UHGV virus genome: UHGV-0180691 | Source: a virus | Direction: 5' to 3' (one strand) | Length of the DNA: 40,865 bases | Shown here: positions 720-36,894 of the stretch, piece by piece | How positions within the stretch are numbered: the stretch's first letter is position 1 | How the letters are laid out: each line of letters begins with the position of its first letter | Program-made: the position numbers and the translations under genes | Notes under the pieces: generated by a model | Told to the model about the DNA's origin: nothing | Databases searched by the model: none | The model's input: the letters and a program-made list of their open reading frames with translations, nothing else

Positions 720-1883
720 TTAAGATTTTTTTTCTATCGATGTCCTTCCATCATACTCAGTCAGGTATTTTCCGTAATGGCGGAACAGCATTTCCGGTCC
801 CTTATGCCCCATTTGTCCCGCAAGCCAAAACAGGTTAGCTCCTTGACTGATATGTCTGGTGGCGAACGTATGCCTAGTCTGATATGGGTTTCTATAACGA
901 ATACCAGCCTTACGTAATGTTGGAACCCATGCTTTTTTTCTAATTGCATCAGCACTGGCCCAAGGTTTGTTCCTTTTTGGGTCTTCGAATATCATTTCAC
1001 CTTTCATAAAAGTGAACAGTTTCTGGCTGTCGAGAGCCGCCAATGCTTCTTCAGTCAGTTCTACTTTCCTTGTGCCTGCTTTTGTTTTTGTTGCTTTAAT
1101 GACACCAACTACACTGGCATTTTGAACGTGTGCTGTCCTGCCTACAAAGTCGATATCACGCCAACGAAGAGCACACAACTCAGAACTACGCAGCCCGGTT
1201 TGTATAGCGAACCGAAAAAGGTTCTCACACTGCTTATTGCCAGTTGCTGAGAGCAATGCGTCAACTTCTGTTGGCGTCAAAGGATCTACCACATAACTAC
1301 TTTCTGCCTCTGATTTATCACTTTGGTAACGTGAGGCTGTCACTAGTGATACAGGGTTAATCTGAAGAATACCATCCGTCACCGCCTCATCCAAAGCAGA
1401 ACGCAGGAATGACAGCTGGTTTCGAATAGTCTTTAATGTGGTTTTCTGGCTCTGGATCCATGTCTTCAATGCAGCTGGCGTCAACTCACTTGCAGGAAAA
1501 ATATGAAGTGCTGACAGCGCGCTTCGGCATTTCTTATATCCGCCAATTGTTGAAGGGGACAGTTTCCTCGTTTCGCATATCACCAAATATTCGTCCAAGT
1601 ACATCTTCACAGTTTTACCGGCGGCAGCGTTGCCAAAAATTCTTAACCGGTTAGAACGAGGAAAGTATTCCGCATAAACGAAAGTCCCCCTCTCGATCTT
1701 GTTATATATTTCTCCGAGTGTGCGCTCGGCGTACTTAATGTTTTTTGGAGTTACGTCCAGATTAGAAAGGGGCTCACGGCATTTTACCCCTTTATAAGTG
1801 AAGGTAATATTTATGGTTTCACCGTTGCGATGTTTCCTGATGGTTACGCCGCGTGGGAGTTTAGGCGATTCTGTCGTGCCCAT
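720..1883 (-). CDS. int: phage tyrosine integrase
   Basis: 387 aa; C-terminal catalytic region with conserved R...HxxR...Y context (RHTFATRHISQGANLFWLAGQMGHKGPEMLFRHYGKY); located at prophage end with overlapping excisionase-like gene upstream. Confidence 0.9.
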   Translation of the reverse strand: MGTTESPKLPRGVTIRKHRNGETINITFTYKGVKCREPLSNLDVTPKNIKYAERTLGEIYNKIERGTFVYAEYFPRSNRLRIFGNAAAGKTVKMYLDEYLVICETRKLSPSTIGGYKKCRSALSALHIFPASELTPAALKTWIQSQKTTLKTIRNQLSFLRSALDEAVTDGILQINPVSLVTASRYQSDKSEAESSYVVDPLTPTEVDALLSATGNKQCENLFRFAIQTGLRSSELCALRWRDIDFVGRTAHVQNASVVGVIKATKTKAGTRKVELTEEALAALDSQKLFTFMKGEMIFEDPKRNKPWASADAIRKKAWVPTLRKAGIRYRNPYQTRHTFATRHISQGANLFWLAGQMGHKGPEMLFRHYGKYLTEYDGRTSIEKKS

Positions 1884-2062
1884 TTTGCAACCTCACTAAG
1901 ATCAATCCATCTTTCCTTAACGCCTTCGACCTTTAGCACCTGAACCCCTTCACGCCACACTCCGCGCTGTATGCGCTTATTAATAGCATCAGGGGTTTCG
2001 CCAGTCTCTTTGCAATAAGTTGAGATGGGAACACAATCGAGGCTCAGCATATACTTCTCCAT
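1844..2062 (-). CDS. xis: excisionase-like small DNA-binding protein
   Basis: 72 aa basic protein immediately upstream of and overlapping int start; position typical of xis. Confidence 0.55.
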   Translation of the reverse strand: MEKYMLSLDCVPISTYCKETGETPDAINKRIQRGVWREGVQVLKVEGVKERWIDLSEVAKWARQNRLNSHAA

Positions 2063-2084
2063 TAACCCGGCTGCACCCGAGTAA

Positions 2085-2657
2085 TTAATATTTGTCGCTG
2101 GTGGTAGGGATCAGTTTCTGCCAAATTGCTGACACGTATTTTGCCTGATGGCGCGCATCAGCCAGGGCATTGTGCACATCGCCAATAAAAGGCATGTCAC
2201 GCTTCGGATCGAAACCGACACTGCGACCGAGCGTAACAATAGTGCGCACATCGTGATCGTTCCAAAAGGCCCAAGGGCAAATGCGGCCGGCGCGTTCGTA
2301 AGCTCCACGCAGAATCACATTGTCAAAGGTGGCACCGTTACCCCAGACCTTCATGTATTTGGGATTATCTGCGTGCCGGTGAATGAAATGGCTCAGTTCC
2401 GACAGTGCATCAGTGATAGGCATCGCATCATCAACGCAAATAGCTGAGCGCGCTTCTGAGCTTTGTTTGAGCCACCAAAGAATAGTATCTCCGTCCGGTA
2501 CCGCACCCTGATCCATTGCGCTTTCAAGCGAGACGGCCGTATAGAATTCTTGGCCAAGTTCACATGTATGAGGGTTAAAAAAGACGGCACCAATTGACAC
2601 GATCGGCGCGTTTGGCTTTTTTCCCATTGATTCGAGGTCAATCATTAAGTCGTTCAA
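2085..2657 (-). CDS. putative 3'-5' exonuclease (DnaQ-like fold, phage early-left region)
   Basis: 190 aa; acidic N-terminal motif MIDLESMG resembling exonuclease motif I; 4-bp ATGA overlap with upstream ORF suggests translational coupling. Family assignment from memory, not searched. Confidence 0.5.
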   Translation of the reverse strand: MNDLMIDLESMGKKPNAPIVSIGAVFFNPHTCELGQEFYTAVSLESAMDQGAVPDGDTILWWLKQSSEARSAICVDDAMPITDALSELSHFIHRHADNPKYMKVWGNGATFDNVILRGAYERAGRICPWAFWNDHDVRTIVTLGRSVGFDPKRDMPFIGDVHNALADARHQAKYVSAIWQKLIPTTSDKY

Positions 2658-2947
2658 TTGCTTTCTCCATTGTTAATTCTTGGCTTTTGATTCACTGGGG
2701 GGGGGGGGTAGCGCGAGTCGGCGTTGTCGCTAACGTGGCAATAATGAGCCCCGTCAGGACGAGTACAAATTGTCCCGCACCTATCACATGCCAATATTGC
2801 TTCCAGCTCCGCAATCCGCTCCTCTGCTTTTGACAACTGCTCGAGAAGTTCTTCTGCTAACGTCACACGCATCACGACTTTCTGACAGTCGTGGCGTTTG
2901 GCTCTGGCGATTGTGCCGCGCAGAGTCGCATATTTGTTTGTGGTCAT
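2654..2947 (-). CDS. hypothetical small protein containing a poly-proline stretch encoded by a G12/C12 homopolymer
   Basis: 97 aa ORF; coiled-coil-like segment (EELLEQLSKAEERIAELEAIL) and CxxC; in operon context with overlapping neighbours. Confidence 0.4.
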   Translation of the reverse strand: MTTNKYATLRGTIARAKRHDCQKVVMRVTLAEELLEQLSKAEERIAELEAILACDRCGTICTRPDGAHYCHVSDNADSRYPPPPVNQKPRINNGESN

Positions 2948-3141
2948 TGGACGGACTCCTGACGAAGATGGTTAATTTCGGCGTCAAGGCTCATTCGCTG
3001 GTCCATCGATTCCGTCAAGGCGGCAAATGTAACGTCCAAGCGAGTGGCTACCTCACGCATCAGAGAGGCTTCTGCTGGTGGCAGTTTCCCCGCCGCAGCA
3101 TGGGCTGCGGCTACCAGTTCTTTTATCTTCATGCGTGGCAT
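2944..3141 (-). CDS. hypothetical small early protein
   Basis: 65 aa ORF with overlapping start/stop to neighbours on the same strand. Confidence 0.35.
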   Translation of the reverse strand: MPRMKIKELVAAAHAAAGKLPPAEASLMREVATRLDVTFAALTESMDQRMSLDAEINHLRQESVQ

Positions 3142-3668
3142 GCGCGTGATTCCATAAGCTCATTGAAACGGTTAATGAACAAGCCATATGCCTGGCCTGG
3201 GCGAAGTGGAACGATCTGGATAATGTCGCTGGCCGGAATACCTTCGAGGCAAGGCCAGAGTGAACCGTCGTCGATATCCAGATCGCGGCGTTCAGTGGCA
3301 AGCATCACCAGATCGGCATATTTCACTACCGCTGACATATCAGAGGTTATGCTGAATTTGGTGCGGATCAGGTCATCAACCATCGTTTCGATGCGTTGAT
3401 AATCCGGCAGAAGTGCTTTGAGAGGAGCAGGGATGTCCTGGCAATACGCTTCGGCCGCGTCATGCATCAGGGCTTCAAAGGCAAACTCTGGCGGCACAAT
3501 TTGGCTGCACAGCACCGAGTGCTGGGCCACGCTGTAAAATTCCGGCAGATGACCAGTGAAGCGGCAGATGTGTGAAAGTGCGGTCGCAATATCCTCGATC
3601 TCCACATCGTCAGCGGTTGAATTGAGGTAATCGAATTTCTTTCCTGAAAGTGTCTGGATATAACTCAT
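3129..3668 (-). CDS. yfdR: HD-domain phosphohydrolase (YfdR-like 5'-deoxynucleotidase family)
   Basis: 179 aa; HD motif context (ALMHDAAEAY) and upstream His (ALSHICRF); size and neighbourhood match the CPS-53-type early-left block. Confidence 0.65.
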   Translation of the reverse strand: MSYIQTLSGKKFDYLNSTADDVEIEDIATALSHICRFTGHLPEFYSVAQHSVLCSQIVPPEFAFEALMHDAAEAYCQDIPAPLKALLPDYQRIETMVDDLIRTKFSITSDMSAVVKYADLVMLATERRDLDIDDGSLWPCLEGIPASDIIQIVPLRPGQAYGLFINRFNELMESRACHA

Positions 3669-3803
3669 CGTCTTTTCTTCTCCATATTTGGCAGCTGCAC
3701 CTGCGCCAGTTTTTGGTTGTACGAATCCCTCGCCATTGGCGATTAATAAAGGGAATTACGCTTCAATAAATCCCCGCGGCGCCGGGGATTTAATGCAGAG
3801 AAA

Positions 3804-4634
3804 TTACGCTTTAAAGTTACCGATAAAGGTTTCAACCGGCTTGTCGGTGAACTTCTCTATCAGCAGGTCACGGAACTCGTTGGCGATAGCTTCTTCCTGG
3901 GCTTCCAGTTGAACGATGCGGAGTACAAACACCGGTTCCCCGCTTTTAAGCAGGCTGTTACGCAGGCTAAAGCGGCGTTCGCCTAGGCCTTCATATGGCA
4001 CGCATTTGAACTCGAAGGCGACAGGCATCACGTCTTTACTGCTGGCTTCAACGCTCTGCATCAGGGACTTTCTGCCGCCAAAATCTTCGTCTTCATGAGC
4101 TGCTTCCGAGACTTGTTTGATATTGACGCGACGAACGGCACCAGCTGCCTGCGCGATGGACAACACATTCCCGTCGGCATCAAATGCGCTCAGGAAGTCG
4201 GCCCAGTCCTCCAGCCATTCAGCAATTTCCTTCTGGCCCAGTCGATCGCCATTTACCTGAAGTAGGGCTCGGAATGGCGCTGTCTTTTTGAGGGTGATAG
4301 ATGCGACGTTATCAGCATGGCCAGGGTTAGCCAGAGTACCGATATTGAACACGGAGCGTGCGGTCATGTTGTCAGCATCGATAAAGCATCGCGCTGGTTC
4401 AGCTTCGTTGGCATAGCCAGCTGCATAACGCACAAAGTCAGGAATGCTGGTTGTGGTCATGGCACCGCGAAAACGAAAACGCTCCAGATCGAAACGCTCA
4501 AGGCTTTCTACGTTTACGCCATCAGGGAGCAGGGCAGTAGGGCATGCTGTTTCTTTAACTGCAGTAAGGTGATAACCGGAAAGAACAAGGTCTTTCACCT
4601 GCTGCAGGGCATTGCCGTCTAAAATCTGGGACAT
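3804..4634 (-). CDS. conserved phage early protein, YfdQ-like (DUF2303-type), function unknown
   Basis: 276 aa; size and position between YfdR-like and YfdP-like ORFs; assignment from memory of prophage CPS-53 gene order, not searched. Confidence 0.5.
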   Translation of the reverse strand: MSQILDGNALQQVKDLVLSGYHLTAVKETACPTALLPDGVNVESLERFDLERFRFRGAMTTTSIPDFVRYAAGYANEAEPARCFIDADNMTARSVFNIGTLANPGHADNVASITLKKTAPFRALLQVNGDRLGQKEIAEWLEDWADFLSAFDADGNVLSIAQAAGAVRRVNIKQVSEAAHEDEDFGGRKSLMQSVEASSKDVMPVAFEFKCVPYEGLGERRFSLRNSLLKSGEPVFVLRIVQLEAQEEAIANEFRDLLIEKFTDKPVETFIGNFKA

Positions 4635-4687
4635 AAAATTTCCTTAATATGTTGTCAAAGGGATGTCAGTGATTTGTCTGCTGCGGA

Positions 4688-5059
4688 TCACTGTGCCGCT
4701 TTAAGCTTTCCGTCAACGCCGCCGTTGATCCCGAACAGCTGCCCCTGATCTTCCTGCAGGATGGTCAGCTTGCCGCCTTTGTTAACCCACATTGGTGTTT
4801 CGGTGGTGTCTTCTTCGGAGGCTTTACCGCGCGGGGTTGGGGTGACGTAGTTCAGCTTGTGCTTGATCTTGACGCGCTTCTCTTCGACGGAGTTACCCAT
4901 ACGCTCAATATCAAAGGTGAGGACTACTTTGCCTTTGGTACCGTTGTTCAGAACGCCAAGCGCGGTAGTGTTTAAAGCTGCCGCGATCTTGTTCATGAAC
5001 ACGCCGGCATCCAGTTCGCCCAGGAAATCGGGCACTACGGTCATGCGGTCATTACTCAT
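4688..5059 (-). CDS. conserved phage early protein, YfdP-like, function unknown
   Basis: 123 aa; position and size consistent with yfdP of CPS-53-like early regions. Confidence 0.45.
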   Translation of the reverse strand: MSNDRMTVVPDFLGELDAGVFMNKIAAALNTTALGVLNNGTKGKVVLTFDIERMGNSVEEKRVKIKHKLNYVTPTPRGKASEEDTTETPMWVNKGGKLTILQEDQGQLFGINGGVDGKLKAAQ

Positions 5060-5268
5060 GGTTTAACCCTCTGTGAGGCGGCTGCCACCGCCAGTGGAAC
5101 TTCTCCATACACAACAGAAAAGGGCACCTGCGCTTCGGCTATGGGTAGGAGGTCCATTTCCATAGCGCCCGGGTGGATTGGGGAATGAGCCCGTCGCCCG
5201 GTGATGCCCTTGTCTCTTGTGTAAAAAAGGTGCCCACCGATGTGATGGGCAAAGACTACACACAGCAA
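5056..5268 (-). CDS. hypothetical small ORF upstream of YfdP-like gene (doubtful)
   Basis: 70 aa; ATGA overlap with downstream gene start but TTG start and overlaps another ORF in a different frame. Confidence 0.2.
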   Translation of the reverse strand: MLCVVFAHHIGGHLFYTRDKGITGRRAHSPIHPGAMEMDLLPIAEAQVPFSVVYGEVPLAVAAASQRVKP

Positions 5269-5684
5269 TGATTTTGTTGTGGCGGTGGTGCCTCCACCTG
5301 CCGGACCGGCCAGAACCGGCGACGCTACACCTCAAGAAACGTATTCATTTCAAAAGTTGAAATAAAAACTTGTTGGCCTCGTCACGTGCGCAGAGCCGCA
5401 TTACCACAACTGGAAGCGCACTCTTTCGGTAACAAACCTGCCCCCGCAGTGAAAGAGAGAAGGAGTGCGCTTTCACGTTGTGCCCTTAAAAAGCTGGCTG
5501 TCACCCTCAAGGGGAAAGTGAGCAGCCAGAACAGGGATCACTTCTTATTGCTTTGGCCTGCTTTTAACCACATCAGGCGCGGTGGTAAGTCATTTGCGAA
5601 TCATCCGGTCATTCATACGCCACCGGCGGCTACTTCGTGGGCTTCCTGCCTGTTCGCTGTTGATGAAAATGAAGATAAAAGATA

Positions 5685-5725
5685 TTTGCGAAATGCGCAA
5701 GAAATAAAATGCGTAAAACGCAATT
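5685..5725. promoter_or_regulatory. putative left operator/promoter (OL/PL) region
   Basis: Motifs TTTGCGAAATGCGCAAG (5685-5701) and ATGCGTAAAACGCAATT (5709-5725) closely match motifs in the cI-cro intergenic region (15 of 17 identical to 6542-6558). Confidence 0.45.
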
Positions 5726-5733
5726 GAAAGGGC

Positions 5734-5766
5734 GTAAAAAAACCGCCGTGTAGGCGGTTATTTGTT
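5734..5766 (-). terminator. rho-independent terminator downstream of repressor gene (possibly bidirectional)
   Basis: Stem AACCGCC / GGCGGTT with 6-nt loop (5741-5760); 7 A on plus strand upstream gives a U-run on the minus-strand transcript. Confidence 0.7.
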
Positions 5767-5777
5767 CTTAGGGGATG

Positions 5778-6473
5778 TTATCCGTGCCGTTTAACTGACT
5801 GCGACTGGCTGATCATTACCTTGCCGAAAACGTAAAATCTGTCTTCATTGGACTTATCCACTGACCACTCCCGATATTTAGGGTTATCGGAAATGACAAG
5901 AATTTTATCTGGGATCATCTGTAATCTTTTGACGTAAATTTTATCATCAAAACCAAAGACATAAATCCCATCACCATCAAACTCATTAATCGAAATATCA
6001 ACGAATATCAAATCACCTGGTTCAATGGTATCAGCCATGCTGTCACCACGAACGTTAATCACTTTGACCGTATCTGGTGTTCTCCCACCAAATAATGCGG
6101 CGGCTCTTTCGTTGTTGTACTCAATGGACCTGATGACATCGACGACATCACTACCTTGTATATGGCCCATGCCAGCACTGGCGCTGACATCGAGCAACTC
6201 GACTCTAAACACAGGGTCACCCTCTCCATAAGCTGGATTTTTACCACTGGATTTACATACAGTATTTTCATTTGGAGATGGTGTAAAGAGTTCTGCCACG
6301 CTGACACCAAGTGCCGTAGCATATTTGCTAAGCGATTGTTCAGTAAATGACTTTTGTTTTCCAGTCTCAACCCGTGAGACGTTCGCACCGTCAATACCTA
6401 CAGCTTCAGCAAGATCTGAAATTTTCATGCCCTTTTCGAGGCGTAATTCTCTAATGCGGTTTCCTATGTTCAT
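5778..6473 (-). CDS. cI: CI-like prophage repressor (N-terminal HTH, C-terminal LexA/S24-like autopeptidase domain)
   Basis: 231 aa; N-terminal HTH (IRELRLEKGMKISDLAEAVGIDGANVSRVETG); C-terminal domain with GDSM and VKRL context typical of S24 Ser/Lys dyad; divergent from cro-like gene. Confidence 0.9.
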   Translation of the reverse strand: MNIGNRIRELRLEKGMKISDLAEAVGIDGANVSRVETGKQKSFTEQSLSKYATALGVSVAELFTPSPNENTVCKSSGKNPAYGEGDPVFRVELLDVSASAGMGHIQGSDVVDVIRSIEYNNERAAALFGGRTPDTVKVINVRGDSMADTIEPGDLIFVDISINEFDGDGIYVFGFDDKIYVKRLQMIPDKILVISDNPKYREWSVDKSNEDRFYVFGKVMISQSQSVKRHG

Positions 6474-6484
6474 GCGTCCATTAC

Positions 6485-6566
6485 AGGTTGTTTTTGCGTG
6501 ATATGCAAAGCAACTTGCGCAAGTCGTAACTACACATTAATATGCGTAATGCGCAATTACAGGGGG
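6485..6566. promoter_or_regulatory. putative right operator region (OR) with divergent PRM/PR promoters
   Basis: Repeated operator-like motifs TTTGCGTGATATGCAAAG (6493-6510), CTTGCGCAAG (6514-6523) and ATGCGTAATGCGCAATT (6542-6558) between divergent cI and cro. Confidence 0.55.
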
Positions 6567-6570
6567 TATT

Positions 6571-6834
6571 ATGCAATCACCGTTAAGAAATTTGCGAAAA
6601 TCGCAAGGTTTGACTCTCTCTCATGTGGCAAACGTGGTGGACATTGATCCAGCCAACCTAAGCCGAATTGAAAGGGGTCAACAAATCGCATCACTCGATG
6701 TAGCTGAAAGGCTTGTGAAGTTTTATTCGGGCCAAATTGATGAGCTCCAAATCTTGTACCCGCACCGTTATACGCAGGCTACAGAAACTGGGGAAGCAAC
6801 GGTACCACAGGAAAAAGGGGAAAGCCGTGGGTAA
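6571..6834 (+). CDS. cro: Cro-like HTH transcriptional regulator
   Basis: 87 aa; HTH (LRKSQGLTLSHVANVVDIDPANLSRIERG); divergent from cI; RBS AGGGGG upstream. Confidence 0.8.
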   Translation: MQSPLRNLRKSQGLTLSHVANVVDIDPANLSRIERGQQIASLDVAERLVKFYSGQIDELQILYPHRYTQATETGEATVPQEKGESRG

Positions 6835-7375
6835 CGAACCGGAATGGAAAGTTGATAAGCAGCCAGCCTGGCTGGTGGCCGCAATCAAAAAAACAATCAC
6901 CGAACTGCCGGGCGGATATTCAGAAGCTGCTGAGTGGTTGGGTGTGACCGAGAACGCGCTGTTTAACCGGCTGCGTACCGATGGTGATCAGATCTTCCCG
7001 CTCGGTTGGGCGATGGTGCTTCAGCGTGCTGGTGGTTCAAACCACATCGCGAACGCTATTGCACGTCACTCGAACGGTGTTTTTGTGCCATTGGCTGATG
7101 TTGAAGAGATTGAGAACGGCGATATCAACCAGCGTCTCATGGAGTCAGTTGAGTGGATCGGCAGGCATTCGCAATACGTTCGTAAAGCTACCGCTGACGG
7201 CGTTATTGATGCTCAGGAACGCGCCCAGATCGAAGAGAACAGCTATCAGGTGATGGCTAAGTGGCAGGAACATTTGACGCTGCTTTTCCGTGTGTTTTGC
7301 GCGCCGGAAAAGAGTGACGCCCGCGAGTGTGCAGCTCCGGGCGTCGTGGCAGACAAATCTTGTATGGAGAAGTAA
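6827..7375 (+). CDS. putative CII-like/YdaT-like early regulatory protein
   Basis: Start moved to GTG at 6827 (RBS GGGGAAAG upstream; overlaps cro stop); position immediately after cro; family assignment tentative. Confidence 0.4.
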   Translation: MGNEPEWKVDKQPAWLVAAIKKTITELPGGYSEAAEWLGVTENALFNRLRTDGDQIFPLGWAMVLQRAGGSNHIANAIARHSNGVFVPLADVEEIENGDINQRLMESVEWIGRHSQYVRKATADGVIDAQERAQIEENSYQVMAKWQEHLTLLFRVFCAPEKSDARECAAPGVVADKSCMEK

Positions 7376-7380
7376 TCCGC

Positions 7381-7707
7381 ATGACCAGTTTAACGGCTTT
7401 TAACCGTTTACCGCAACTGAGGATGATCCCGGTACCGGGCGCTCCGTTGTTTCGGTATGAACGCAGAATAGCAAACCGCTGGGTGCCATGTAACCACAGT
7501 CGGGCGGTCGCAATTGTGGGGGTTTACTACAGGAAGGCGAAACGCTTATGCGCGAAGTTAACCGAAGGTTCAAAGACCACAGAGGGATCCCCGTTCGGGT
7601 TATCCGGTGGGAGCCAGAGACTCAACGAGTTATCTACCTGCGGGATGGTTATAACCACGAATGTTTCAGCCCGCTCGAACAATTCAAGCGCAAGTTTACA
7701 GAGTTAA
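7381..7707 (+). CDS. hypothetical early protein
   Basis: ATG at 7381 with GGAG 10 nt upstream; 109 aa; between cII-like and replication genes. Confidence 0.35.
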   Translation: MTSLTAFNRLPQLRMIPVPGAPLFRYERRIANRWVPCNHSRAVAIVGVYYRKAKRLCAKLTEGSKTTEGSPFGLSGGSQRLNELSTCGMVITTNVSARSNNSSASLQS

Positions 7708-7716
7708 AGGACGACC

Positions 7717-8571
7717 ATGAGCACTAAATTAACGGGTTACGTTTGGGACGCTTGTGCCGCTTCTGGCATGAAGCTGTCCAGCGTTGCCATCATGGCGCGT
7801 CTGGCAGACTTCAGCAGTGATGAAGGGGTTAGCTGGCCTTCCATCGCTACCATCGCGCGCCAGATTGGTGCCGGTGAGAGCACGGTTCGCACAGCCATAT
7901 CTCAACTGGAAAAAGACGGGTGGTTAACCCGCCAGCAGCGCCGTAAAGGCAACCGCAATGCATCGAACGTTTACCAGCTCAATGTTGCGAAATTACAGGC
8001 TGCTGCTTTTTCTCACCTGTCAGATTCTGACGCATCAAATTCTGATGCCTCAAAAACCGACGCGTCAAAATCTGAGGCATCAAAAAACGATGAAAAAGGC
8101 GGTTTTCACCCGTCAGAATCTGGGGGGGATCCGTCAGTAAATACAACTACTGATCCATCAGTTAAAAAACCTTTTTGTCCGGTTGCGCCGCAACCAGACC
8201 CTGAAGTGATGATTACCGATAACGCCATCCTGGTTCTGAATCATCTGAACCTGGTTAGCGGCTCACGATACCAAAAATCAAAAACTTCTCTGGAAAACAT
8301 CCGTGCTCGCTTGCGCGAAGGTTACACCGTTGGTGACTTACAACTGGTGATTGACCTTAAGCATGAGCACTGGAACGGCAATGACGTGCAGTACCAGTAC
8401 ATGCGCCCTGAAACGCTATTTGGCCCGAAAAAGTTCGAGGGTTATCTGCAAAGCGGGATCCGTTGGGACAAGAAGGGGCGTCCACCACGTGAAAGCTGGG
8501 GTGAAAAGAAACACGATCCGATGAAGTTCGGTCCGGTTGATACCAAGATTCCAGAGGGGTTCAGAGGATGA
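7717..8571 (+). CDS. replication initiation protein (O-like, N-terminal winged-HTH; conserved phage C-terminal domain)
   Basis: 284 aa; position after cro/cII; internal low-complexity linker encoded by direct repeats (iteron-like) as in lambda O; RBS AAAGGA upstream. Confidence 0.65.
   Translation: MSTKLTGYVWDACAASGMKLSSVAIMARLADFSSDEGVSWPSIATIARQIGAGESTVRTAISQLEKDGWLTRQQRRKGNRNASNVYQLNVAKLQAAAFSHLSDSDASNSDASKTDASKSEASKNDEKGGFHPSESGGDPSVNTTTDPSVKKPFCPVAPQPDPEVMITDNAILVLNHLNLVSGSRYQKSKTSLENIRARLREGYTVGDLQLVIDLKHEHWNGNDVQYQYMRPETLFGPKKFEGYLQSGIRWDKKGRPPRESWGEKKHDPMKFGPVDTKIPEGFRG
8026..8088. repeat. four direct repeats with 15-bp periodicity (core GAYGCNTCAAAA), iteron-like, inside the replication gene
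   Basis: Cores start at 8029, 8044, 8059, 8074; followed by an A-rich stretch; encode the SDASNSDASKTDASKSEASKND linker. Confidence 0.5.
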
Positions 8572-11385: not shown

Positions 11386-11399
11386 TATGGAGAAATAGC

Positions 11400-27292: not shown

Positions 27293-27309
27293 ATGCCTGG
27301 AGAAAATTA

Positions 27310-29282: not shown

Positions 29283-29301
29283 TTTTTCAACTGAACATAC
29301 C

Positions 29302-29324
29302 AACGGCCTGCGGGCCGTTTTTAC
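29302..29324 (+). terminator. rho-independent terminator after tail tube gene
   Basis: Stem CGGCC / GGCCG with short loop followed by T5. Confidence 0.55.
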
Positions 29325-29340
29325 TTTTTAAGGATTATTT

Positions 29341-29628: not shown

Positions 29629-29768
29629 TGCGGGCGATACGCTTTCTCGGGCGGCGCCTGCATTTTCCCATGGCGGAATACCTGGACATGCCATTCAGTG
29701 TGTTTTCTGATTTTCTCACCGACGAAGTGGAGGCGGTAAATCGTGGCCGGATTAAGCCAGAACCTTAA
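29628..29768 (+). CDS. -1 frame extension ORF downstream of tail chaperone (E'-like; candidate programmed frameshift product)
   Basis: Hand translation MRAIRFLGRRLHFPMAEYLDMPFSVFSDFLTDEVEAVNRGRIKPEP; frame open from 29586; overlaps chaperone 3' end and tape-measure 5' end. Confidence 0.35.
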   Translation: MRAIRFLGRRLHFPMAEYLDMPFSVFSDFLTDEVEAVNRGRIKPEP

Positions 29769-31416
29769 GGCCGTCATTACCTTTGGCGGCAATATCGACA
29801 GCTCCTGGAGCCGTTCAGCGAACGGTTTGCAAAAGAGCCTGAAGGATGTCGGAAAGCAGTCAGAAAAACTGAGCAAAGACCAGGCTAAGCTGGCGGCGGA
29901 GATTAAGAAAGCAAAGCTTGCCGGGCAGAGCCTGGGCGATCTGAAACGCCGTTACAGCGATGTGTCCCGTGAAATCCGTAAAACGGAGTCCGAACAGCAG
30001 AAGCTGAACCAGCAGATGCAGAAGGCGCAGCGGCTGGCGTCATTTAAGGGGGCAGGTAAAGGATTGTTTCGCCGCGGTCTGGGTATCGCCGGACAGCTGG
30101 GCGGCATGGTGGCACCGGGGCTGGCGATCGGCGGCGGCGGGGTTGTGGCCTCCGCACTGGGCACTCTGATTGCCCCGGCGGCCACCAACGCGGAAACGGC
30201 CAGACGCGCCGGCGTGGCGAAAAGCTATGGCGTCGATATCCCGACGTTTGATGCATGGGACACCCTCGCAAAACAGTACGACATGAACGGAGAGAATATC
30301 GGCGATCTGTTTGAGGAGTATCTGCACAAGGCGGGGGAGTACAAGCAGAACGGCAAACAGGGCTCACTGCAGGATGCGTTTGAAACGCTGGGCTTCAAAG
30401 CCGGCGACTTTGCCGGCCTGAGCGATATGGCGCAGTTTGAAAGAATCGTCGAGCGTGCGCTCAGTCTGCAGGATGAGTCAAAAGCTTCGTTTGCTCTTGA
30501 TTCGCTGTTTGGCGGCGAGGCCAGCAAGCTGCTGATGCTACTGAAGCAGTCCGGGAAAAGTTACCGCGACCTGATGGACGAGCAGCGTCGGTATAACCTC
30601 GTCACGAAAGAGGGGGCTGAAGGCGCGATGGCGGGCAATCGTGCCATTACTAATCTGCAGACCGTTTTCTCTTCTGCACTGGCGGAAATCTCCGGCCAGC
30701 TCGGTAACGAACTGGCGCCGGATATCCGACGCCTGACTGACGATATGGCGGAGTGGTTTAAAGGCGGGGGGATCAAACGCATCGTCAGTTTTCTACGCAA
30801 TGATCTCTACCCAGGCGTGCTGACGTTCGGGCAGGGGATCGTTTTCGTCGGGAAAGTGGCGTATGCGCTGGCGAAAAAACTGTCCTGGTTGTTGCCGGAT
30901 GAGCGAAGCGATCAGCGTGATGTGCTCAAATCGCTGGCCATGACCGGCTCGGTCGATATCGCCCGCATGACGGCGCAGCGTAACGGCCAGGGAGAGTGGT
31001 TCGAACAGCAGCTCAAAGAAAAACCGGGTCTGCCGGACGATGTGAAAAAATCGTACCGGGATACGCGAGGTATCTTCAGTGATGACAATGAAGGCTTTGA
31101 TAAATCACTGGATAAATATCTGACACCGGAAAACAGCGGACCGCTGTTTGGCCTGGATAGGGCTCAGAGCAATAGCGCGTCGGCTTCAGGCGACGGAGGT
31201 TACTGGGATGCACTTCTCCAGCGCCTTGATACAGCCGACCAGCAGCCACAGGCAAGGCAGCTTACTGACAACCGGAAATTCGAATACCGTTTCGAAATTA
31301 ACGGAGCACCCGGACAAAGCGAGCAAGGTATAGCTGATGCGGTCGAGGGGGTGACGAAAACCAGCCCGGCGTTTACGGGTAACAGCAGCATGATGGACGG
31401 AGGACAAATCTGGTGA
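29743..31416 (+). CDS. tail tape measure protein
   Basis: GTG 29743 with GGAGG RBS; 557 aa; coiled-coil-rich N-terminus, Gly-rich hydrophobic segment (GIAGQLGGMVAPGLAIGGGGVVASALG); position after chaperone. Confidence 0.75.
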   Translation: MAGLSQNLKAVITFGGNIDSSWSRSANGLQKSLKDVGKQSEKLSKDQAKLAAEIKKAKLAGQSLGDLKRRYSDVSREIRKTESEQQKLNQQMQKAQRLASFKGAGKGLFRRGLGIAGQLGGMVAPGLAIGGGGVVASALGTLIAPAATNAETARRAGVAKSYGVDIPTFDAWDTLAKQYDMNGENIGDLFEEYLHKAGEYKQNGKQGSLQDAFETLGFKAGDFAGLSDMAQFERIVERALSLQDESKASFALDSLFGGEASKLLMLLKQSGKSYRDLMDEQRRYNLVTKEGAEGAMAGNRAITNLQTVFSSALAEISGQLGNELAPDIRRLTDDMAEWFKGGGIKRIVSFLRNDLYPGVLTFGQGIVFVGKVAYALAKKLSWLLPDERSDQRDVLKSLAMTGSVDIARMTAQRNGQGEWFEQQLKEKPGLPDDVKKSYRDTRGIFSDDNEGFDKSLDKYLTPENSGPLFGLDRAQSNSASASGDGGYWDALLQRLDTADQQPQARQLTDNRKFEYRFEINGAPGQSEQGIADAVEGVTKTSPAFTGNSSMMDGGQIW

Positions 31417-31883
31417 GTGAAATCGTTCCGGTCTATGAAGACTTCGGACAGTCGTGGTCCGGCGCTGTCCGTGGCGCACAGGCCGCCCGAGTGATGATGA
31501 TGCTGGGCGACTTTGCCTTTTCGATTGATACCACCGCGTACAGCCAACTGACCCGTGAGGCCAGCTGGCGCTGGAGTGAGCAGGAGCGGATCGGTAAACA
31601 GGATTTACTGCAGTATACCGGCAAGCCCGGGCGAACGGTTCGGCTTGAAGGGGAGTCGCATGCTTTCTTCCGCAAGGGGGTGGATGCCGTCAACGATCTC
31701 TTCGACCTCGCAGATCAGAATAAGCCACAACAACTGGTCAGCGGCGAAGGGGATGTGCTTGGCTGGTGGGTGGTTATCGACTTCTCCGACACAACCAGCC
31801 GTTTCCTGCCAGGCGGTGGCCACCGAAATAAAAACTGGACGATGACGCTGAAACATTATGCCGACGACATATCAAACCCGTGA
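31413..31883 (+). CDS. tail protein U-like (gpU family)
   Basis: 156 aa; GTG start overlapping tape-measure stop; position and size as P2 U / R-pyocin U-like. Confidence 0.55.
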   Translation: MSEIVPVYEDFGQSWSGAVRGAQAARVMMMLGDFAFSIDTTAYSQLTREASWRWSEQERIGKQDLLQYTGKPGRTVRLEGESHAFFRKGVDAVNDLFDLADQNKPQQLVSGEGDVLGWWVVIDFSDTTSRFLPGGGHRNKNWTMTLKHYADDISNP

Positions 31884-32073
31884 CGGTGATGTGCTTGATG
31901 CAGTCTGTGCGACACATTACGGCACGGAAAACCTTTCTTATATTGTGACTCAGGTGCTTGAAGCGAATCCGGGACTGGCTGACATCGGTGCCGTTTACCC
32001 GTCTGACCTCTATATCATCCTGCCTGATCTGGCGCCGCCGGTTCAGGATTCTGCATTTAGTCTGTGGGATTAA
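31858..32073 (+). CDS. tail protein X-like (LysM-like domain)
   Basis: 71 aa; GDVLDAVC...YG...VLEANPGLADIGAV resembles P2 gpX/LysM as I recall it; positioned between U-like and D-like genes as in R-type pyocin clusters. Confidence 0.6.
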   Translation: MPTTYQTRDGDVLDAVCATHYGTENLSYIVTQVLEANPGLADIGAVYPSDLYIILPDLAPPVQDSAFSLWD

Positions 32074-32074
32074 T

Positions 32075-33193
32075 ATGACTGAACAGATTGTTAAACCGGA
32101 ATATGCACCTGCTTTCAGCATCAACGCGGAGGGAAAAGATATTACCCGCGCGCTGCAGCAAAGCCTGTCGGAGCTGACGCTGACGGATTATGGCGGCGCT
32201 ACGGCAAAGGCGGATGAACTGAAAATCACGCTGCTGTCCGAAACGTTGCCTCTGCCGGTGAAAGGGGCACGGTTACGCGTGGCGCTGGGTTTTAACGACC
32301 AACTGGTGGATAAGGGCTGGTTTGTGGTGTCCGGCGTGGGCAGCAGTGGCCCGCCACGTCGTATAGAGATTTATGCCACTGCCGCGCCCATGAATGCACA
32401 GAAACAGCCTGGCGATGTGCTCAGCCAGAAAACGCGCAGCTGGGATAACCTGCGACTTGCGGATCTGGTTAAAACCGTGGCCACCGAAAACGGTCTGGTG
32501 CCGAAAGTGGCCACAGAGCTTGCAGACATCCACATTGACCATGTTGATCAGGTTGCAGAATCCGACGCGAACCTGCTGACCCGCCTTGCCCGAACGTGGA
32601 ACGCTGTCAGCAAACCCTCAGGCGGTTACTGGCTTTTTTTGCGCCAGGGTGCAACCGCGAAAGCCTCCGGAGAGCAGACCGGCGCTCTGGTTATCACACC
32701 AGAACAGGTATCAAACTGGTCGTACAACGAAGGTGAACGGGGGAGTTCGACAGGAAAGGCCACCGGCAGTGGCGGTAAGTCCTCGGGTAAAATTGGCGTT
32801 CGGTATTACGATGAGGCTGACGGAAAGACCAAAACCACCACGGTCGATCATGACGGTCCCTCAATGGCGAACCCGTATACCCAGCCGGTGAAGGACACCG
32901 CTGACCAGCAGGCAAAGTCAAAAAAAACGCAGGCACAGCGCAATGAGCAAAAAATGACGGTTACTGGTCCTTGCCGCCCTGAACATGTCCCTCTCACCGC
33001 AGAATCCGGCGTATCCACGTCCGGCTTTGGTGAGCGGGAAGATCGTGCCTGGGTGGTGGAGTCGCTGGTTTACTCCCTGACACCCGGCGGCTTCAGCTAC
33101 ACGTACAACCTGGTGGTTGATATTCGCAAGCCTGCGAAATCCTCTAAAAAATCCGGCAGCAAGGATAAAACTGGACCGGATTACTTCGGCTAA
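32075..33193 (+). CDS. baseplate hub protein (P2 gpD-like / late control D family)
   Basis: ATG 32075; 372 aa; position after U/X; Gly/Ser/Lys-rich internal linker. Confidence 0.7.
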   Translation: MTEQIVKPEYAPAFSINAEGKDITRALQQSLSELTLTDYGGATAKADELKITLLSETLPLPVKGARLRVALGFNDQLVDKGWFVVSGVGSSGPPRRIEIYATAAPMNAQKQPGDVLSQKTRSWDNLRLADLVKTVATENGLVPKVATELADIHIDHVDQVAESDANLLTRLARTWNAVSKPSGGYWLFLRQGATAKASGEQTGALVITPEQVSNWSYNEGERGSSTGKATGSGGKSSGKIGVRYYDEADGKTKTTTVDHDGPSMANPYTQPVKDTADQQAKSKKTQAQRNEQKMTVTGPCRPEHVPLTAESGVSTSGFGEREDRAWVVESLVYSLTPGGFSYTYNLVVDIRKPAKSSKKSGSKDKTGPDYFG

Positions 33194-33232
33194 CTTACCG
33201 CCACCCGGCGGACCTGATACGGAAAAAATACT

Positions 33233-33580
33233 ATGAACGGCGTAAACAGCTGGACGGGTAAACGCCTGTCCGGTACCGACCATTTGCGTCAGTCGGTCAG
33301 CGACATCCTCTCAACCCCGGTAGGTAGCCGGGTGCTTGTCCGTGATTATGGCAGCAACCTGTTTTCGCTGGTGGACAACCCCCGAGATGACCTTACGCGG
33401 CTACGTATTATCGCAGCGACCGCCTCGGCGCTGGCGAGATGGGAGCCGCGGCTGAAGGTCACGCGCGTGGTCGTCTCTTTCCCGGCAACTGAAACGGGGT
33501 GTGTGGTGGATATTGAAGGGATCAACAAAGAGAACAATCTTCCTATCAGCACCGGAGGCATACCGATATATGGCAAGTAG
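33233..33580 (+). CDS. baseplate assembly protein W (gpW/gp25-like)
   Basis: 115 aa, the typical gpW size; followed by J- and I-like genes. Confidence 0.75.
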   Translation: MNGVNSWTGKRLSGTDHLRQSVSDILSTPVGSRVLVRDYGSNLFSLVDNPRDDLTRLRIIAATASALARWEPRLKVTRVVVSFPATETGCVVDIEGINKENNLPISTGGIPIYGK

Positions 33581-34484
33581 TTATGACGTAATTAACCTGT
33601 CCGCCCTGGCGGTACCGGATGCCATCGTGGTTCCGGATGCTGCAGATATTTTTACCCGCTGGCTGGCACGCCTGCGCGAACTGGATCCGGTATTTGATGC
33701 GCTGGTGGAATCTGATCCGGCGTTTAAACAGGGTGAAATCAATGCCTACCAGCTCGCCCTGGCGTTTCAGCGAGTCAATGACGCGGTACGCGCAGTTTTC
33801 CTTGCCAGCGCAAGAGGGGCCGATCTCGACCAGATTGGCGCGGGCTTTAACGTTTCCCGTCTGGTGATAAATCCCGGAGATCCGGATGCTGTGCCACCTG
33901 TCGATCCTGTTTATGAAGATGATGACGCTTTTCGTGAGCGTATACAGCTTTCATGGGCACAACTGAATACGGCAGGCGCGCGCAATGCATACCGCTTCCA
34001 TGCCAAATCAGCAGATAACGATGTGCTGGATGCGGATGCTTACGGACCGGAGACGCATAACCGACCGGGGGAAGTAGACGTCTACGTCCTGTCGCGAACC
34101 GGGAATGGTGAGGCCAGCCCCAGCCTGACAGAAAAAGTGATGAGCGAACTGAGCGCCGATGAGGTCAGGCCTCTGACTGATTATGTAAGCGTAAAAAGCG
34201 CCACCATTGTCAACTATGCGGTAACGGCTGAACTGGATATACCTGACGGACCGGATGCACAGACGGTGCTGGAACATGCCATCAGCACGCTGACAAGCTA
34301 CACCCGGCTTGCGCATCGCATAAACGGCCTCGTACCGCTTTCCGCGATTTACGCAGCACTCCAGCAGCCCGGCGTCACAAGAGTCAGGCTGATAAGTCCG
34401 GTCGCAGATCTGGAAGCAGCCGCGGGGCAGGCTCCCTGGTGCAGTGCGATAAACGTCACCCGCAAAGGAGGGTCCGGTGGATAA
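33570..34484 (+). CDS. baseplate assembly protein J-like
   Basis: ATG 33570 with GGAGG RBS overlapping W; about 305 aa; followed by I-like gene with overlapping start. Confidence 0.75.
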   Translation: MASSYDVINLSALAVPDAIVVPDAADIFTRWLARLRELDPVFDALVESDPAFKQGEINAYQLALAFQRVNDAVRAVFLASARGADLDQIGAGFNVSRLVINPGDPDAVPPVDPVYEDDDAFRERIQLSWAQLNTAGARNAYRFHAKSADNDVLDADAYGPETHNRPGEVDVYVLSRTGNGEASPSLTEKVMSELSADEVRPLTDYVSVKSATIVNYAVTAELDIPDGPDAQTVLEHAISTLTSYTRLAHRINGLVPLSAIYAALQQPGVTRVRLISPVADLEAAAGQAPWCSAINVTRKGGSGG

Positions 34485-35028
34485 ATTTCGCTCCCTGCTA
34501 CCGCCCTCCGCCATCCAGCCAGAGCGGGCACTGGAGCAGGCCAGTTCGGAGCAGATCACAGCGCTGGATACGGGCATGGTGCGTAAGGTGAAAGACCCCG
34601 ATACCTGTCCGGCGCATTTGTTGCCCTGGCTTGCCTGGGAATTTTCGGTTGATTCCTGGGAAGACGCCTGGACTGAGGCTGAAAAGCGGCAGGTGATTAA
34701 GGATGCCGCATATGTTCATCAGCATCGCGGTACTGCCGGCGCTGTCAGGCGGTCACTGAGCGCTGTCAGTCTCCCAACTACCGTGGTGGAGTGGTGGGAG
34801 GATCTGCCGCGTAAGGCTCCCTACACCTTCCGCATTGAGGTTTACAGCCTTCAGGAAGTTGATGACGCGCTGTATCAGCGTATCCGGCGGCAGGTCGATA
34901 AAGCGAAGAACCTGAGGAGTCTGTTGACCTCTATTGACGTGATTGCGGATCTGGGCGCCATGGGAACTTATTACACCGGCGGTGCTGTCACCGCCTGGAT
35001 TGATATTGATATTGAGGCAGGAGTTTAG
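34477..35028 (+). CDS. tail protein I-like (baseplate wedge)
   Basis: 183 aa; GTG start with AAGGAGGG RBS; immediately upstream of tail fiber gene. Confidence 0.7.
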   Translation: MDKFRSLLPPSAIQPERALEQASSEQITALDTGMVRKVKDPDTCPAHLLPWLAWEFSVDSWEDAWTEAEKRQVIKDAAYVHQHRGTAGAVRRSLSAVSLPTTVVEWWEDLPRKAPYTFRIEVYSLQEVDDALYQRIRRQVDKAKNLRSLLTSIDVIADLGAMGTYYTGGAVTAWIDIDIEAGV

Positions 35029-35030
35029 CC

Positions 35031-36356
35031 ATGGCTGAGAAGTATTACAGTATTCTGACCAACAGAGGCAAAGAGCTGGAGGCGCAGTCTTCTGCGACCG
35101 GGAAGCCCGTCATAATTAAAGATTTTGTAGTAGGTGATGGTAACGGCCAGCCGGTTAAGCCTGACCCGGCATTAACAGCCCTTGTTCGCGAAGTTTATCG
35201 TGCGGCGGTTTCATCATTGCAGGTCTCACCGGAACAGGCTAATCAGTTTATTGCGCAGCTTGTACTGCCTGCCGATGTGGGCGGCTTTGTAGTCAGGGAG
35301 GTCGGACTTTTGACCGATGCAGGCGAGCTTTATGCTGTAGCGAACTGTGCCGCGATCGAGAAGCCAGTAAGTGGTATCAGCGTTAAACTCCAGTTTAGAC
35401 TCGCTGTGTCTGAAACGGCTGATATCGAGCTGAAGGTTTCAACGGGCGATGGGTTGTTTCTGCGACAGGATGCAAACCTGAGTGATGTGATGGATATAGT
35501 CAGGGCACGGAAAAACCTTGGGCTGAAAGAGGCAGCAGTTCTGGATGTTGGGACAAAAGCTGGCACTGTGGCGGCAGGGGATGACGAACGCATTACCGGC
35601 GCTGTGCAGCGCGCTGGTGACGAAATGGCGGGATCTCTTTCTATCACTGACTCAACCGCACTCCGCTTAAAGCAGAAAGATGTGAGTACCCTTTTCCGCT
35701 TTGACGGTACAACGTTTTACCTGATGTTTACAAAAAAAGGTGATCCGAATGGCGGGTATAACAATTTACGTCCTTTTTATGTTGATGCAAATACCGGGGC
35801 TGTAACCCTAGGTAATGTAGTTAAGGCCCCTGCGGGAATTACTGCAAATTCAATTACGTCGAATACAAGTGTTTTCATCGAGAGTGACGACCGTCAGCAT
35901 ATTATTTTTCAAAATAAAGATGGCACCCCGAGAGCATATATTTATAAAGACCGTAATTCCGATCTTCGTCTGAATAACGGTAATGAGGGGGGCGGAGATT
36001 TTGTTATCTCACGTACCGGTGACCTCTTGTGGGGCCCGAATGGAGCGAGACTGAGCTATGACGGGAATCTCTACGGCTCTGTATGGGGCGGTTGGCTGTC
36101 AAACTGGCTAACTGGGCGGCTTGGGGCGAAGGCGGAAATTAACTGGGTGCAGTCAAATTTCATCACTGATGTCGCGCTCGGTGCCGAGGGGTCATTCATC
36201 ATTGCTAAAAATGCATGGCAGCGCGCGCCTGCTGGATGTGTCCTTACTGGTTACAACGCCGAAGGTAACGAACCTGTAAACGATACATTATTTTACCGCC
36301 CCATTCAGAAATATGTTCCGACTGTCGGCTGGATGGTCATTGGTCACACTGCATAG
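35031..36356 (+). CDS. tail fiber protein (conserved N-terminus, variable C-terminal receptor-binding region)
   Basis: 441 aa; N-terminal MAEKYYSILTNRGKELEAQ...VVGDGNGQPV typical of P2 H / Mu S-type fibers; C-terminal part visibly lower GC. Confidence 0.8.
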   Translation: MAEKYYSILTNRGKELEAQSSATGKPVIIKDFVVGDGNGQPVKPDPALTALVREVYRAAVSSLQVSPEQANQFIAQLVLPADVGGFVVREVGLLTDAGELYAVANCAAIEKPVSGISVKLQFRLAVSETADIELKVSTGDGLFLRQDANLSDVMDIVRARKNLGLKEAAVLDVGTKAGTVAAGDDERITGAVQRAGDEMAGSLSITDSTALRLKQKDVSTLFRFDGTTFYLMFTKKGDPNGGYNNLRPFYVDANTGAVTLGNVVKAPAGITANSITSNTSVFIESDDRQHIIFQNKDGTPRAYIYKDRNSDLRLNNGNEGGGDFVISRTGDLLWGPNGARLSYDGNLYGSVWGGWLSNWLTGRLGAKAEINWVQSNFITDVALGAEGSFIIAKNAWQRAPAGCVLTGYNAEGNEPVNDTLFYRPIQKYVPTVGWMVIGHTA

Positions 36357-36366
36357 GACACATGGT

Positions 36367-36894
36367 ATGGCATTAACACTTAAAAATTTAACGATTTACA
36401 CACCTGAATATTACGACCTGATGATTCAGGCGATTTATCTTCAAACAGAAGATGGTCTGGACTGGTATCTACATTTGACCCGCTTCCAGCCTGATACGCT
36501 GAAAATTTGTTTTGATGATAAAGGGGTAATCCGATCATACCATGCTGACGCGTCACGCCTTTATCCGTTGAATCTTTCGGTAACTGAGGTCAATACCGCC
36601 GATGTGCCGGATGGCCTGAATATTTACGGTGAATGGATGTGGAACGGCGAAAAAATAATTCCACGTGAGTTTACCCGGCAGGAAAAAATCGACCAGGCAG
36701 AAGCCCATCGTTCAGAATTGATCGCCGCTGCAGGGGAAAAAATTGCACCACTCCAGGATGCCAGCGATTTGGGTATTGCCACAAAAATGGAGGCGGATCA
36801 ACTGATGGCGTGGAAGTCCTACCGGGTGAAACTAAACCGCCTGGTGTTCACAAATGATCAGGAGATCAGCTGGCCGTCACCACCAGAAACATAA
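36367..36894 (+). CDS. tail fiber assembly protein (Tfa/gpG-like chaperone)
   Basis: ATG 36367; 175 aa; follows the tail fiber gene. Confidence 0.7.
   Translation: MALTLKNLTIYTPEYYDLMIQAIYLQTEDGLDWYLHLTRFQPDTLKICFDDKGVIRSYHADASRLYPLNLSVTEVNTADVPDGLNIYGEWMWNGEKIIPREFTRQEKIDQAEAHRSELIAAAGEKIAPLQDASDLGIATKMEADQLMAWKSYRVKLNRLVFTNDQEISWPSPPET

Follow-up and report, generated by a model that had tools for sequence, protein, structure and literature searches.

The 40,865-nucleotide stretch of UHGV virus genome UHGV-0180691 analysed here (the window; all coordinates are counted from its first base) is, with a probability that we put at about 85%, an inner part of a contractile-tailed temperate phage of 43.6 kb, which is integrated by a tyrosine integrase in the 3′ end of ssrA, beside smpB, and which is built as a three-way mosaic with cargo at its ends. 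The left half, from int to the spanin gene, is very close to coliphage LLS but has immunity of the ST64B kind (cI, cro and the oL/oR operators), the virion half, from cos to gpI, is of the Chris1 type, and the cargo beside the attachment (att) sites comprises LexA-controlled umuDC, LysE, SRAP, DinI and AbiTii on the right and a three-gene cassette on the left. A preliminary description of this DNA had already recognised a mosaic temperate prophage joining lambdoid immunity, Q, lysis and packaging to a contractile tail, and the protein families agree with it. The ends that it proposed, int at 720 on the left and a point between 36895 and about 37070 on the right, have to be abandoned, because the att repeats start at -1402 and 42166, with cargo in the intervals beyond.

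The window is 100% identical to ERZ1035001 NODE_122 in the European Nucleotide Archive, and public contigs found by exact-protein look-up extend beyond it. A 30-bp direct repeat, TTGGTGGAGCTGGCGGGAGTTGAACCCGCG, which is the 3′ end of ssrA, is present at window coordinates -1402..-1373 and 42166..42195, that is, 1,402 bp to the left of base 1 and 1,301 bp to the right of base 40865. Since both copies lie outside the window, the whole window is inside a prophage reaching from -1402 to 42195, about 43.6 kb. The right copy is the 3′ end of the transfer-messenger RNA (tmRNA) gene (ARAGORN; tag ANDENYALAA), followed by smpB, ratA, bamE and recN, and the element fits the description of an ssrA-integrating prophage: the tmRNA 3′ end is directly repeated at its two boundaries, and one boundary retains an intact ssrA. 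Beyond the left copy lie a gene of the Ada methyltransferase family (ada) and other host genes. On its phage side, attR is flanked by 80 bp that are almost identical to the left arm of the attP annotated in LLS. No copy of the LLS attP core or the ssrA core was found in the window with up to three mismatches, which argues that there is no internal att site; a scan of the window for transfer RNA (tRNA) and tmRNA genes gave none, and its direct repeats were chance-level pairs without convincing long ones. Another genome carries, at the same locus and between the same repeats, a 6-kb remnant in which a truncated umuC is joined directly to an int fragment, a junction expected from the internal deletion of one element. 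The size of 43.6 kb also fits relatives with homologous heads, namely LLS (42.9 kb) and Chris1 (45.4 kb). Escherichia coli was ruled out as the host, given that the host flank is 80% identical to it and that at most 68% of either window half is covered by any one E. coli genome; the host is therefore another member of the Enterobacteriaceae.

Comparison with named phages indicates that this phage is a new combination of modules known from LLS, ST64B/SfV and Chris1. Positions 770 to 16894, from int to the spanin gene, share 93.5% nucleotide identity with Escherichia phage LLS (PQ299149), the closest relative of the early half, and most of the proteins are 84-100% identical. LLS also has the ssrA attachment site with a near-identical attP arm, a DinI of 90% identity and a lambda-like cos head (36-71% amino-acid identity), but, being a siphovirus, it has a tail of the lambda type and a central fibre, carries a different repressor and cro, and lacks the C5 methylase, the umuDC-LysE-SRAP genes and a 68-nucleotide leader RNA that is described below. 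The virion module is of the Chris1 type: similarity to this Citrobacter phage (ON041214) extends over 18094-34799 at 78% nucleotide identity (59-89% for the proteins from terS to gpI), the module is collinear from cos to gpI, gpV precedes the sheath, and the capsid protein is fused to a ClpP-type protease. Chris1 differs in its unrelated early, immunity, lysis and integration modules and in its fibre C-terminus and Tfa; a DNA invertase accompanies an invertible stretch of its fibre, its cargo is different and includes an arsenical resistance repressor, and its tape measure is 50 residues longer. Prophages of Scandinavium lactucae and Enterobacter genomosp. O are closer in the virion module (87-88% nucleotide identity), and further ones occur in Citrobacter, Pantoea and other genera.

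The element had been likened to the SfV/ST64B type, named after Shigella phage SfV and Salmonella phage ST64B, and this holds for the general design, a lambdoid early region plus a contractile tail, and for the early-left and immunity genes. At least six of these are homologous, and the dNMP (deoxynucleoside monophosphate) phosphatase, YfdQ, YfdP, the CII-like protein, Dam, DUF968 and the pre-lysis methylase have 55-90% identity to their counterparts; the repressor is 70% identical to that of ST64B, and both ST64B and SfV carry the 68-nucleotide leader RNA. The likeness does not extend to the virion, where homology to SfV orf1-22 or ST64B sb1-25 was not found: tblastn of the proteins from terS to gpI against SfV and ST64B gave no match except gpV at 28% (the fibre and Tfa ends also match). 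Those phages have HK97-type heads, Mu-type tails (gpL, N, P, gp45-48), and other integrases, att sites and cargo (gtr genes, sseK3). The tail had also been called P2/Mu-like, of which the P2 part stands: the families of FI, FII, E/E′, T, U, X, D, V, W, J and I, with H-like and G-like proteins, are shared with P2 (Peduoviridae), while no Mu gp45/46/48 families were found in the tail by Pfam. The gene order differs from that of P2, with a single tail block and V first, and neither the P2 capsid and terminase genes (Q, P, O, N, M, L) nor its regulators (C, Cox, Ogr) are present, their places being taken by a GpA-type terminase and by cI/cro/Q regulation. Measured against lambda, the phage has a CI repressor between oL and oR operator sets (TTGCG-N5-CGCAA-type palindromes on both sides of cI) with a divergent cro, and Q with a terminator upstream of the lysis and virion genes, the promoter between them being presumed; an N-type antiterminator with nut sites and a non-contractile lambda-type tail are not among its features, sheath and tube families being present instead.

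Open reading frames (ORFs) were called and about 55 candidate proteins were scanned against Pfam and PHROGs. From int to Tfa, every function named in the preliminary description was recovered in the same order and on the same strands, and gpV upstream of the sheath, the ClpP-capsid fusion, a third methylase and an antirepressor could be added to its list. Each gene is a single ORF, covering 97-109% of the Chris1 homologues (structural genes) or 98-100% of the LLS homologues (early genes), and no broken genes were apparent among the called ORFs, in agreement with the earlier view that the prophage appears complete. The features of the left half are as follows.

720-1883, minus strand: tyrosine integrase (Arm-DNA-bind_2 and Phage_integrase; 84% amino-acid identity to LLS int)
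1844-2062, minus strand: excisionase, xis (96% amino-acid identity to LLS xis)
2085-5059, minus strand: early-left genes, namely a Rv2179c-like 3′-5′ exonuclease, two small ORFs, a YfbR-like dNMP phosphatase, DUF2303/YfdQ and YfdP (Pfam)
5060-5777, minus strand: non-coding early-left leader (four-phage alignment)
5778-6473, minus strand: CI-type repressor with helix-turn-helix (HTH) and S24 peptidase domains (Pfam; matching ST64B Sb38)
From 6474, plus strand: oR/pRM/pR intergenic region with three TTGCG-type operators (sequence)
6571-6834, plus strand: cro (Pfam HTH_3; 64% amino-acid identity to ST64B)
6827-7375, plus strand: CII-like gene (Phage_CP76)
7327-7707, plus strand: small ORF after the CII-like gene
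7717-8571, plus strand: O-like initiator (Pfam HTH_36 and Phg_2220_C)
8568-9455, plus strand: Dam (Pfam)
9448-11385, plus strand: C5 cytosine methylase of 645 residues (Pfam)
11400-12092, plus strand: Rha/KilAC antirepressor (Pfam)
12212-13150, plus strand: DUF968/HNH protein (Pfam)
13172-13864, plus strand: Q antiterminator (Phage_antiter_Q, PF06323, E=4e-39)
13957-13978, plus strand: strong intrinsic terminator, 93 nucleotides past the Q stop codon
14004-14291, minus strand: 95-residue ORF of low guanine-plus-cytosine (GC) content after the post-Q terminator, a possible moron (no Pfam or PADLOC match)
14551-15603, plus strand: N6/N4 DNA methylase, the third methylase, between Q and the lysis genes (Pfam)
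15674-15889, plus strand: dual-start P21-type pinholin (Pfam, PHROGs, N-terminal sequences)
15886-16425, plus strand: SAR endolysin, a lysozyme (Pfam, PHROGs, N-terminal sequences)
16422-16940, plus strand: Rz-like spanin (Pfam, PHROGs)
17355-17858, minus strand: low-GC (41%) moron encoding a 167-residue membrane protein with an N-terminal membrane segment, at the junction of the LLS-like and Chris1-like halves

The early-left proteins are 92-100% identical to those of LLS and 55-90% identical to those of SfV/ST64B, the replication and modification block (7717-13150) is 95-99% identical to LLS with the exception of the C5 methylase, and the proteins from the methylase to the spanin (14551-16940) are 88-99% identical to LLS. 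The repressor has no match to that of LLS. It retains the self-cleavage residues of the LexA/CI type (Ala100-Gly101, Ser145 and Lys182), which makes RecA-stimulated self-cleavage plausible, as well as the SOS inducibility that had been deduced earlier from the S24 domain. Q followed by a strong terminator is the classical layout for Q-dependent late transcription, and a late promoter pR′ is presumed between them. The 95- and 167-residue ORFs occupy classical moron positions, past the post-Q terminator and past the lysis genes, and the latter had no Pfam, PHROG or PADLOC match. A near-consensus LexA box, TACTGTAAATATAAACAGTG, is located at 14559-14578 in codons 3-9 of the N6/N4 methylase gene, with its CTGT-N8-ACAG kept in LLS and SfV; the LexA-box-like site itself, at 14561-14576, lies in coding sequence, and its conservation could be due to constraint on the codons or to SOS control over the first of the late genes. 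The stretch from pL to the early-left genes gave no N gene and the leader no boxA; the only arginine-rich ORF there, of 90 residues at 5063-5335, was considered as an N-like protein and ruled out by a 14-nucleotide indel in relatives.

The virion half contains the following features.

18126-18137, plus strand: candidate cosN, GGGGCGAGGACA, aligning with the annotated 12-nucleotide cohesive end of LLS
18264-26661, plus strand: packaging, head and neck module, namely terS, terL, W-like adaptor, portal, capsid fusion, decoration, head closure and neck (Pfam, PHROGs)
18758-20881, plus strand: GpA large terminase, terL (Pfam)
About 22600-24672, plus strand: ClpP-type protease/major capsid fusion (Pfam)
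26654-36894, plus strand: P2-type contractile tail module, namely gpV, sheath, tube, E/E′, tape measure, U, X, D, W, J, I, fibre and Tfa (Pfam)
26654-27271, plus strand: gpV spike, upstream of the sheath
27310-28779, plus strand: sheath (PF04984/PF17482)
28776-29282, plus strand: tube, FII type (PF04985)
29341-29628, plus strand: E chaperone (PF10109)
36367-36894, plus strand: Tfa, preceded by the tail-collar fibre (Pfam)

The small terminase is of the DUF1441 family, the portal of the lambda family, the adaptor W-like and the head closure protein FII-like; the module further encodes a decoration protein, a neck/tail completion protein and an unknown protein matching phrog_1072. Head-module proteins are 59-87% identical to those of Chris1 and 36-71% identical to LLS head proteins (terL 71%, portal 56%, capsid fusion 51%), and this homology to LLS indicates a head of the lambda/cos type. 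The junction of the two halves, at 16.9-18.1 kb, holds the opposite-strand gene for the 167-residue membrane protein and a probable cos site at 18126-18137; about 50 bp around the candidate cosN are near-identical in Chris1, and similarity to Chris1-type prophages starts at 18094.

In the tail, the P2 families PF04984, PF17482, PF04985, PF10109, PF06995, PF05489, PF05954, PF04965, PF04865 and PF09684 were all found, including those named GpU, Tail_X, GPD, GPW_gp25, Baseplate_J, Tail_P2_I and tube FII, and the sheath and tube matches confirm the expected myovirus type. Tail proteins are 72-89% identical to Chris1, the fibre matching only in its N-terminal third, and the C-terminal 70% of the sheath aligns with P2 FI at 36% identity. 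The sheath N-terminus (27310-27720) holds about 140 residues, an extra domain absent from P2-type FI, and alignments with P2 begin at residues 135-155. Past the E gene, the -1 frame is open over 29583-29768, overlapping the start of the tape measure gene, and the only window able to join the frames is 29583-29628, with a T5 run at 29588. This layout is consistent with production of E/E′ by a -1 frameshift, the predicted E′ product having E residues joined to YAPARGSTERGLMRAIRF.

The cargo genes inside the window, and the signals near them, are listed next.

1-48, plus strand: 3′ end of a DUF4325 (STAS-like) gene (Pfam E=9e-14)
50-706, plus strand: gene for a 218-residue membrane protein, orf218 (phrog_30059; marginal match to the PADLOC 2TM effector model, E=0.008)
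37077-37092, no strand assigned: canonical LexA box ahead of umuD
37110-37529, plus strand: umuD, with Cys24-Gly25, Ser60 and Lys97 kept (Pfam)
37532-38800, plus strand: umuC (Pfam)
38933-39577, plus strand: LysE-family exporter (Pfam)
39679-40350, minus strand: SRAP/YedK-type peptidase (Pfam)
40412-40579, minus strand: 55-residue ORF between SRAP and DinI
40576-40815, minus strand: DinI (Pfam; matching LLS gp25)

A second LexA box ahead of dinI is cut by the window end, its first half being inside, and an AbiTii gene lies just to the right of the window (PADLOC 1.7e-33). The left cassette consists of three genes between attL and int, for a 307-residue protein without a family, the DUF4325 protein and the 218-residue membrane protein; it is low in GC (38% over 1-706), its part outside the window corresponds to L004:11836-13093, and only its last 706 bp are inside. 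Clear PADLOC matches were limited to AbiTii and the methylase, with nothing convincing for the left cassette or for LysE, SRAP and DUF968; the cassette may be an undescribed exclusion or defence system. The gene at 50-706 and the umuDC, LysE, SRAP and DinI genes (37.1-40.8 kb) are phage cargo and not host genes. An identical DinI stands beside SRAP and umuDC at the tail-fibre end of quite different prophages, namely a Mu-type myovirus and lambda-like siphoviruses whose tip is gpJ, and a lambdoid prophage of E. coli shows this arrangement too. Prophages with the order DinI, SRAP, variable genes and UmuCD were seen in three chromosomal contexts, that is, at ssrA, with DUF1304/DUF2543 neighbours (an Iso_dh-like fragment in L011) and with a DUF3413/sulfatase neighbour; umuDC and SRAP are also within the records of Salmonella phage Oslo, PHB10, CobraSix and ENT39118, and DinI is within that of LLS. 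The interval between SRAP and umuC (window 38801-39678) is variable across loci L003, L007, L009-L014 and L017: LysE occupies it in the window, Septu PtuAB does so in L014 and a PDC-M66 candidate pair in L017, and elsewhere it contains an XRE/M78 pair, acetyltransferases and unknown genes. The interval behaves like a cargo hotspot. Between dinI and abiTii, a fragment of about 49 bp resembles a tRNA 3′ end (L016:12095-12143, equivalent to window positions of about 41027-41075, outside the window) without an ARAGORN call.

The position and unity of the element could be read in other ways. If the prophage ran from int (720) to just past Tfa (36.9-37.07 kb), the umuDC, LysE, SRAP and DinI genes would be host chromosome, a layout that is suggested by the 200-bp AT-rich gap after Tfa and by umuDC being a chromosomal operon in E. 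coli K-12. The att mapping has already refuted it, and next to no credit is left to it: there is no att repeat at 720 or at about 37 kb, the true repeats are outside the window, host sequence, with smpB-ssrA at one end and ada at the other, starts only beyond these repeats, and unrelated prophages elsewhere have the same SOS module behind their tail fibres. That module is swapped as a unit among prophages and has a lower GC content than the tail genes, which, together with the tRNA-like fragment between dinI and abiTii, would also suit two elements in tandem at ssrA, a prophage and, left out of its packaging, an older SOS/defence islet from umuDC to AbiTii. Nevertheless, no internal copy of the ssrA core separates the two parts, the sequence immediately beside attR corresponds to the phage arm of the LLS attP, DinI and umuDC are found inside the phage records named above, and 43.6 kb is a size fitting LLS and Chris1 as a whole, so that a tandem arrangement appears very improbable.

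A further reading accepts the same element but takes it as cryptic, looking intact while being non-inducible or unable to form infectious particles. ST64B, the relative in the early region, is tail-defective despite its intact look; in addition, the tape measure is about 50 residues shorter than that of Chris1 and an N-like function was not found. These points have to be set against genes that are each a full-length single ORF with full-length homologues, an early half 93.5% identical to a plaque-forming phage, LLS, a repressor that keeps its cleavage residues, and near-identical prophage copies in several independent metagenome assemblies. On balance we consider a cryptic prophage unlikely, and we infer from the sequence that the phage of 43.6 kb would be inducible and would produce virions. 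Several points do weigh against such a temperate phage with the modules described: the source is a metagenome assembly; the cos site was assigned by alignment with a single annotated phage; the T5 run in E is not a canonical XXXYYYZ slippery heptamer; the tRNA-like fragment could be a relic of another att site, which would make the far right end composite; and early-left control is only partly accounted for, no N-like antiterminator having been found although a terminator separates pL from the early-left genes.

The leader upstream of the early-left genes contains, in leader order, the following elements.

5759-5741, minus strand: cI terminator (terminator scan)
5722-5686, minus strand: oL operators, TTGCG-N5-CGCAA (four-phage alignment)
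5660-5593, minus strand: 68-nucleotide structured RNA motif (covariation; covariance-model match of 92 bits)
5358-5222, minus strand: module like the 3′ half of RprA (sub-threshold RprA match)
5251-5231, minus strand: intrinsic terminator within the RprA-like module, after which the start of yfdP comes next

The interval of about 720 bp between cI and yfdP is non-coding, with blocks conserved in ST64B, SfV and LLS, and the 68-nucleotide motif is directly downstream of the oL operators. Its 17-nucleotide core is present in at least 120 IMG/VR contigs. Among the matches listed, which comprise 34 distinct variants, compensatory changes were seen at 8 of the 10 pairs of a 5-bp closing helix and a 5-bp hairpin, and 96.4% of the helix cells were paired, compared with 74% in shuffles and 20-48% with the partners slid; RNAalifold recovered the same two helices. 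As the variants were picked by an unpaired 17-mer, the base-pairing test is unbiased by selection. Also among the matches listed, a same-strand ORF ends within 500 nucleotides upstream of the motif in 107 of 117 contigs, 67 of these 107 ORFs being recognisably CI-type repressors, and an rrn-type boxA, GCTCTTTAACAA, which is not in the window, lies just downstream in 28 contigs. The structure is thus real, conserved and adjoins the repressor gene, and it is absent from Rfam: the motif matched no family of Rfam 15 even at E≤1, and Rfam at gathering threshold gave nothing over the whole window. Of 5426 complete E. coli genomes, 247 contain the motif, which RefSeq annotates in none of them, and the searchable literature gave no mention of its sequence and nothing on phage RprA-like small RNAs.

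The covariance model found exactly one motif copy each in the window, ST64B and SfV, with none in LLS or HK022 and no second copy near pR, which indicates that the motif travels with the immunity module. The HK022 put element was ruled out as its identity, as there is no sequence or covariance-model match in HK022, although the two may be analogous in function. The contexts downstream of the motif in IMG/VR loci are heterogeneous, as judged by a terminator census with overly strict criteria. The second module resembles RprA below the level of family membership: the RF00034 match, covering the 3′ half only, scores 42.3 bits (E=4e-4), short of the gathering threshold of 70; 23 bases in a row, AUUGCUGUGUGUAGUCUUUGCCC, are identical and lead into a terminator hairpin and a U-run. 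The core of the module is invariant in the window, ST64B, SfV and LLS while the hairpin sequence varies. We tentatively suggest, giving it well below even odds, that the 68-nucleotide RNA is an undescribed cis-acting regulator, the first structured element of the early-left (pL) transcript, which travels with SfV/ST64B-type immunity and which could, for example, render RNA polymerase resistant to the leader terminator in these phages without N, like HK022 put in function and not in sequence; the terminated leader might perhaps be an RprA mimic. Both the antitermination role and the mimicry of a small RNA are guesses.

Judging from what is known of these protein families, CI would repress pL and pR in the lambdoid manner and would probably be cleaved with the help of RecA in the SOS response, the antirepressor may offer a second route of induction, and Q could let RNA polymerase pass the post-Q terminator into the methylase, lysis and virion genes. 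The lambda-like terminase would then cut at cos, the lambda-family portal and the ClpP-capsid fusion would build the head, and the P2-like contractile tail would be assembled with a chaperone pair E/E′ made by -1 frameshifting.

As a prophage, this element is of little weight, adding a further recombinant of familiar modules. If the ends are placed by int at the left and by Tfa at the right, about 7 kb of cargo is overlooked, including a LexA-controlled error-prone polymerase operon, an abortive-infection gene and the three-gene cassette, and the frame between SRAP and umuC at prophage ends, which holds Septu and other defence candidates in relatives, may merit mining. The uncatalogued leader RNA is the only item here that might repay more work, and it could explain how the early-left genes are controlled without an N protein in this phage group.

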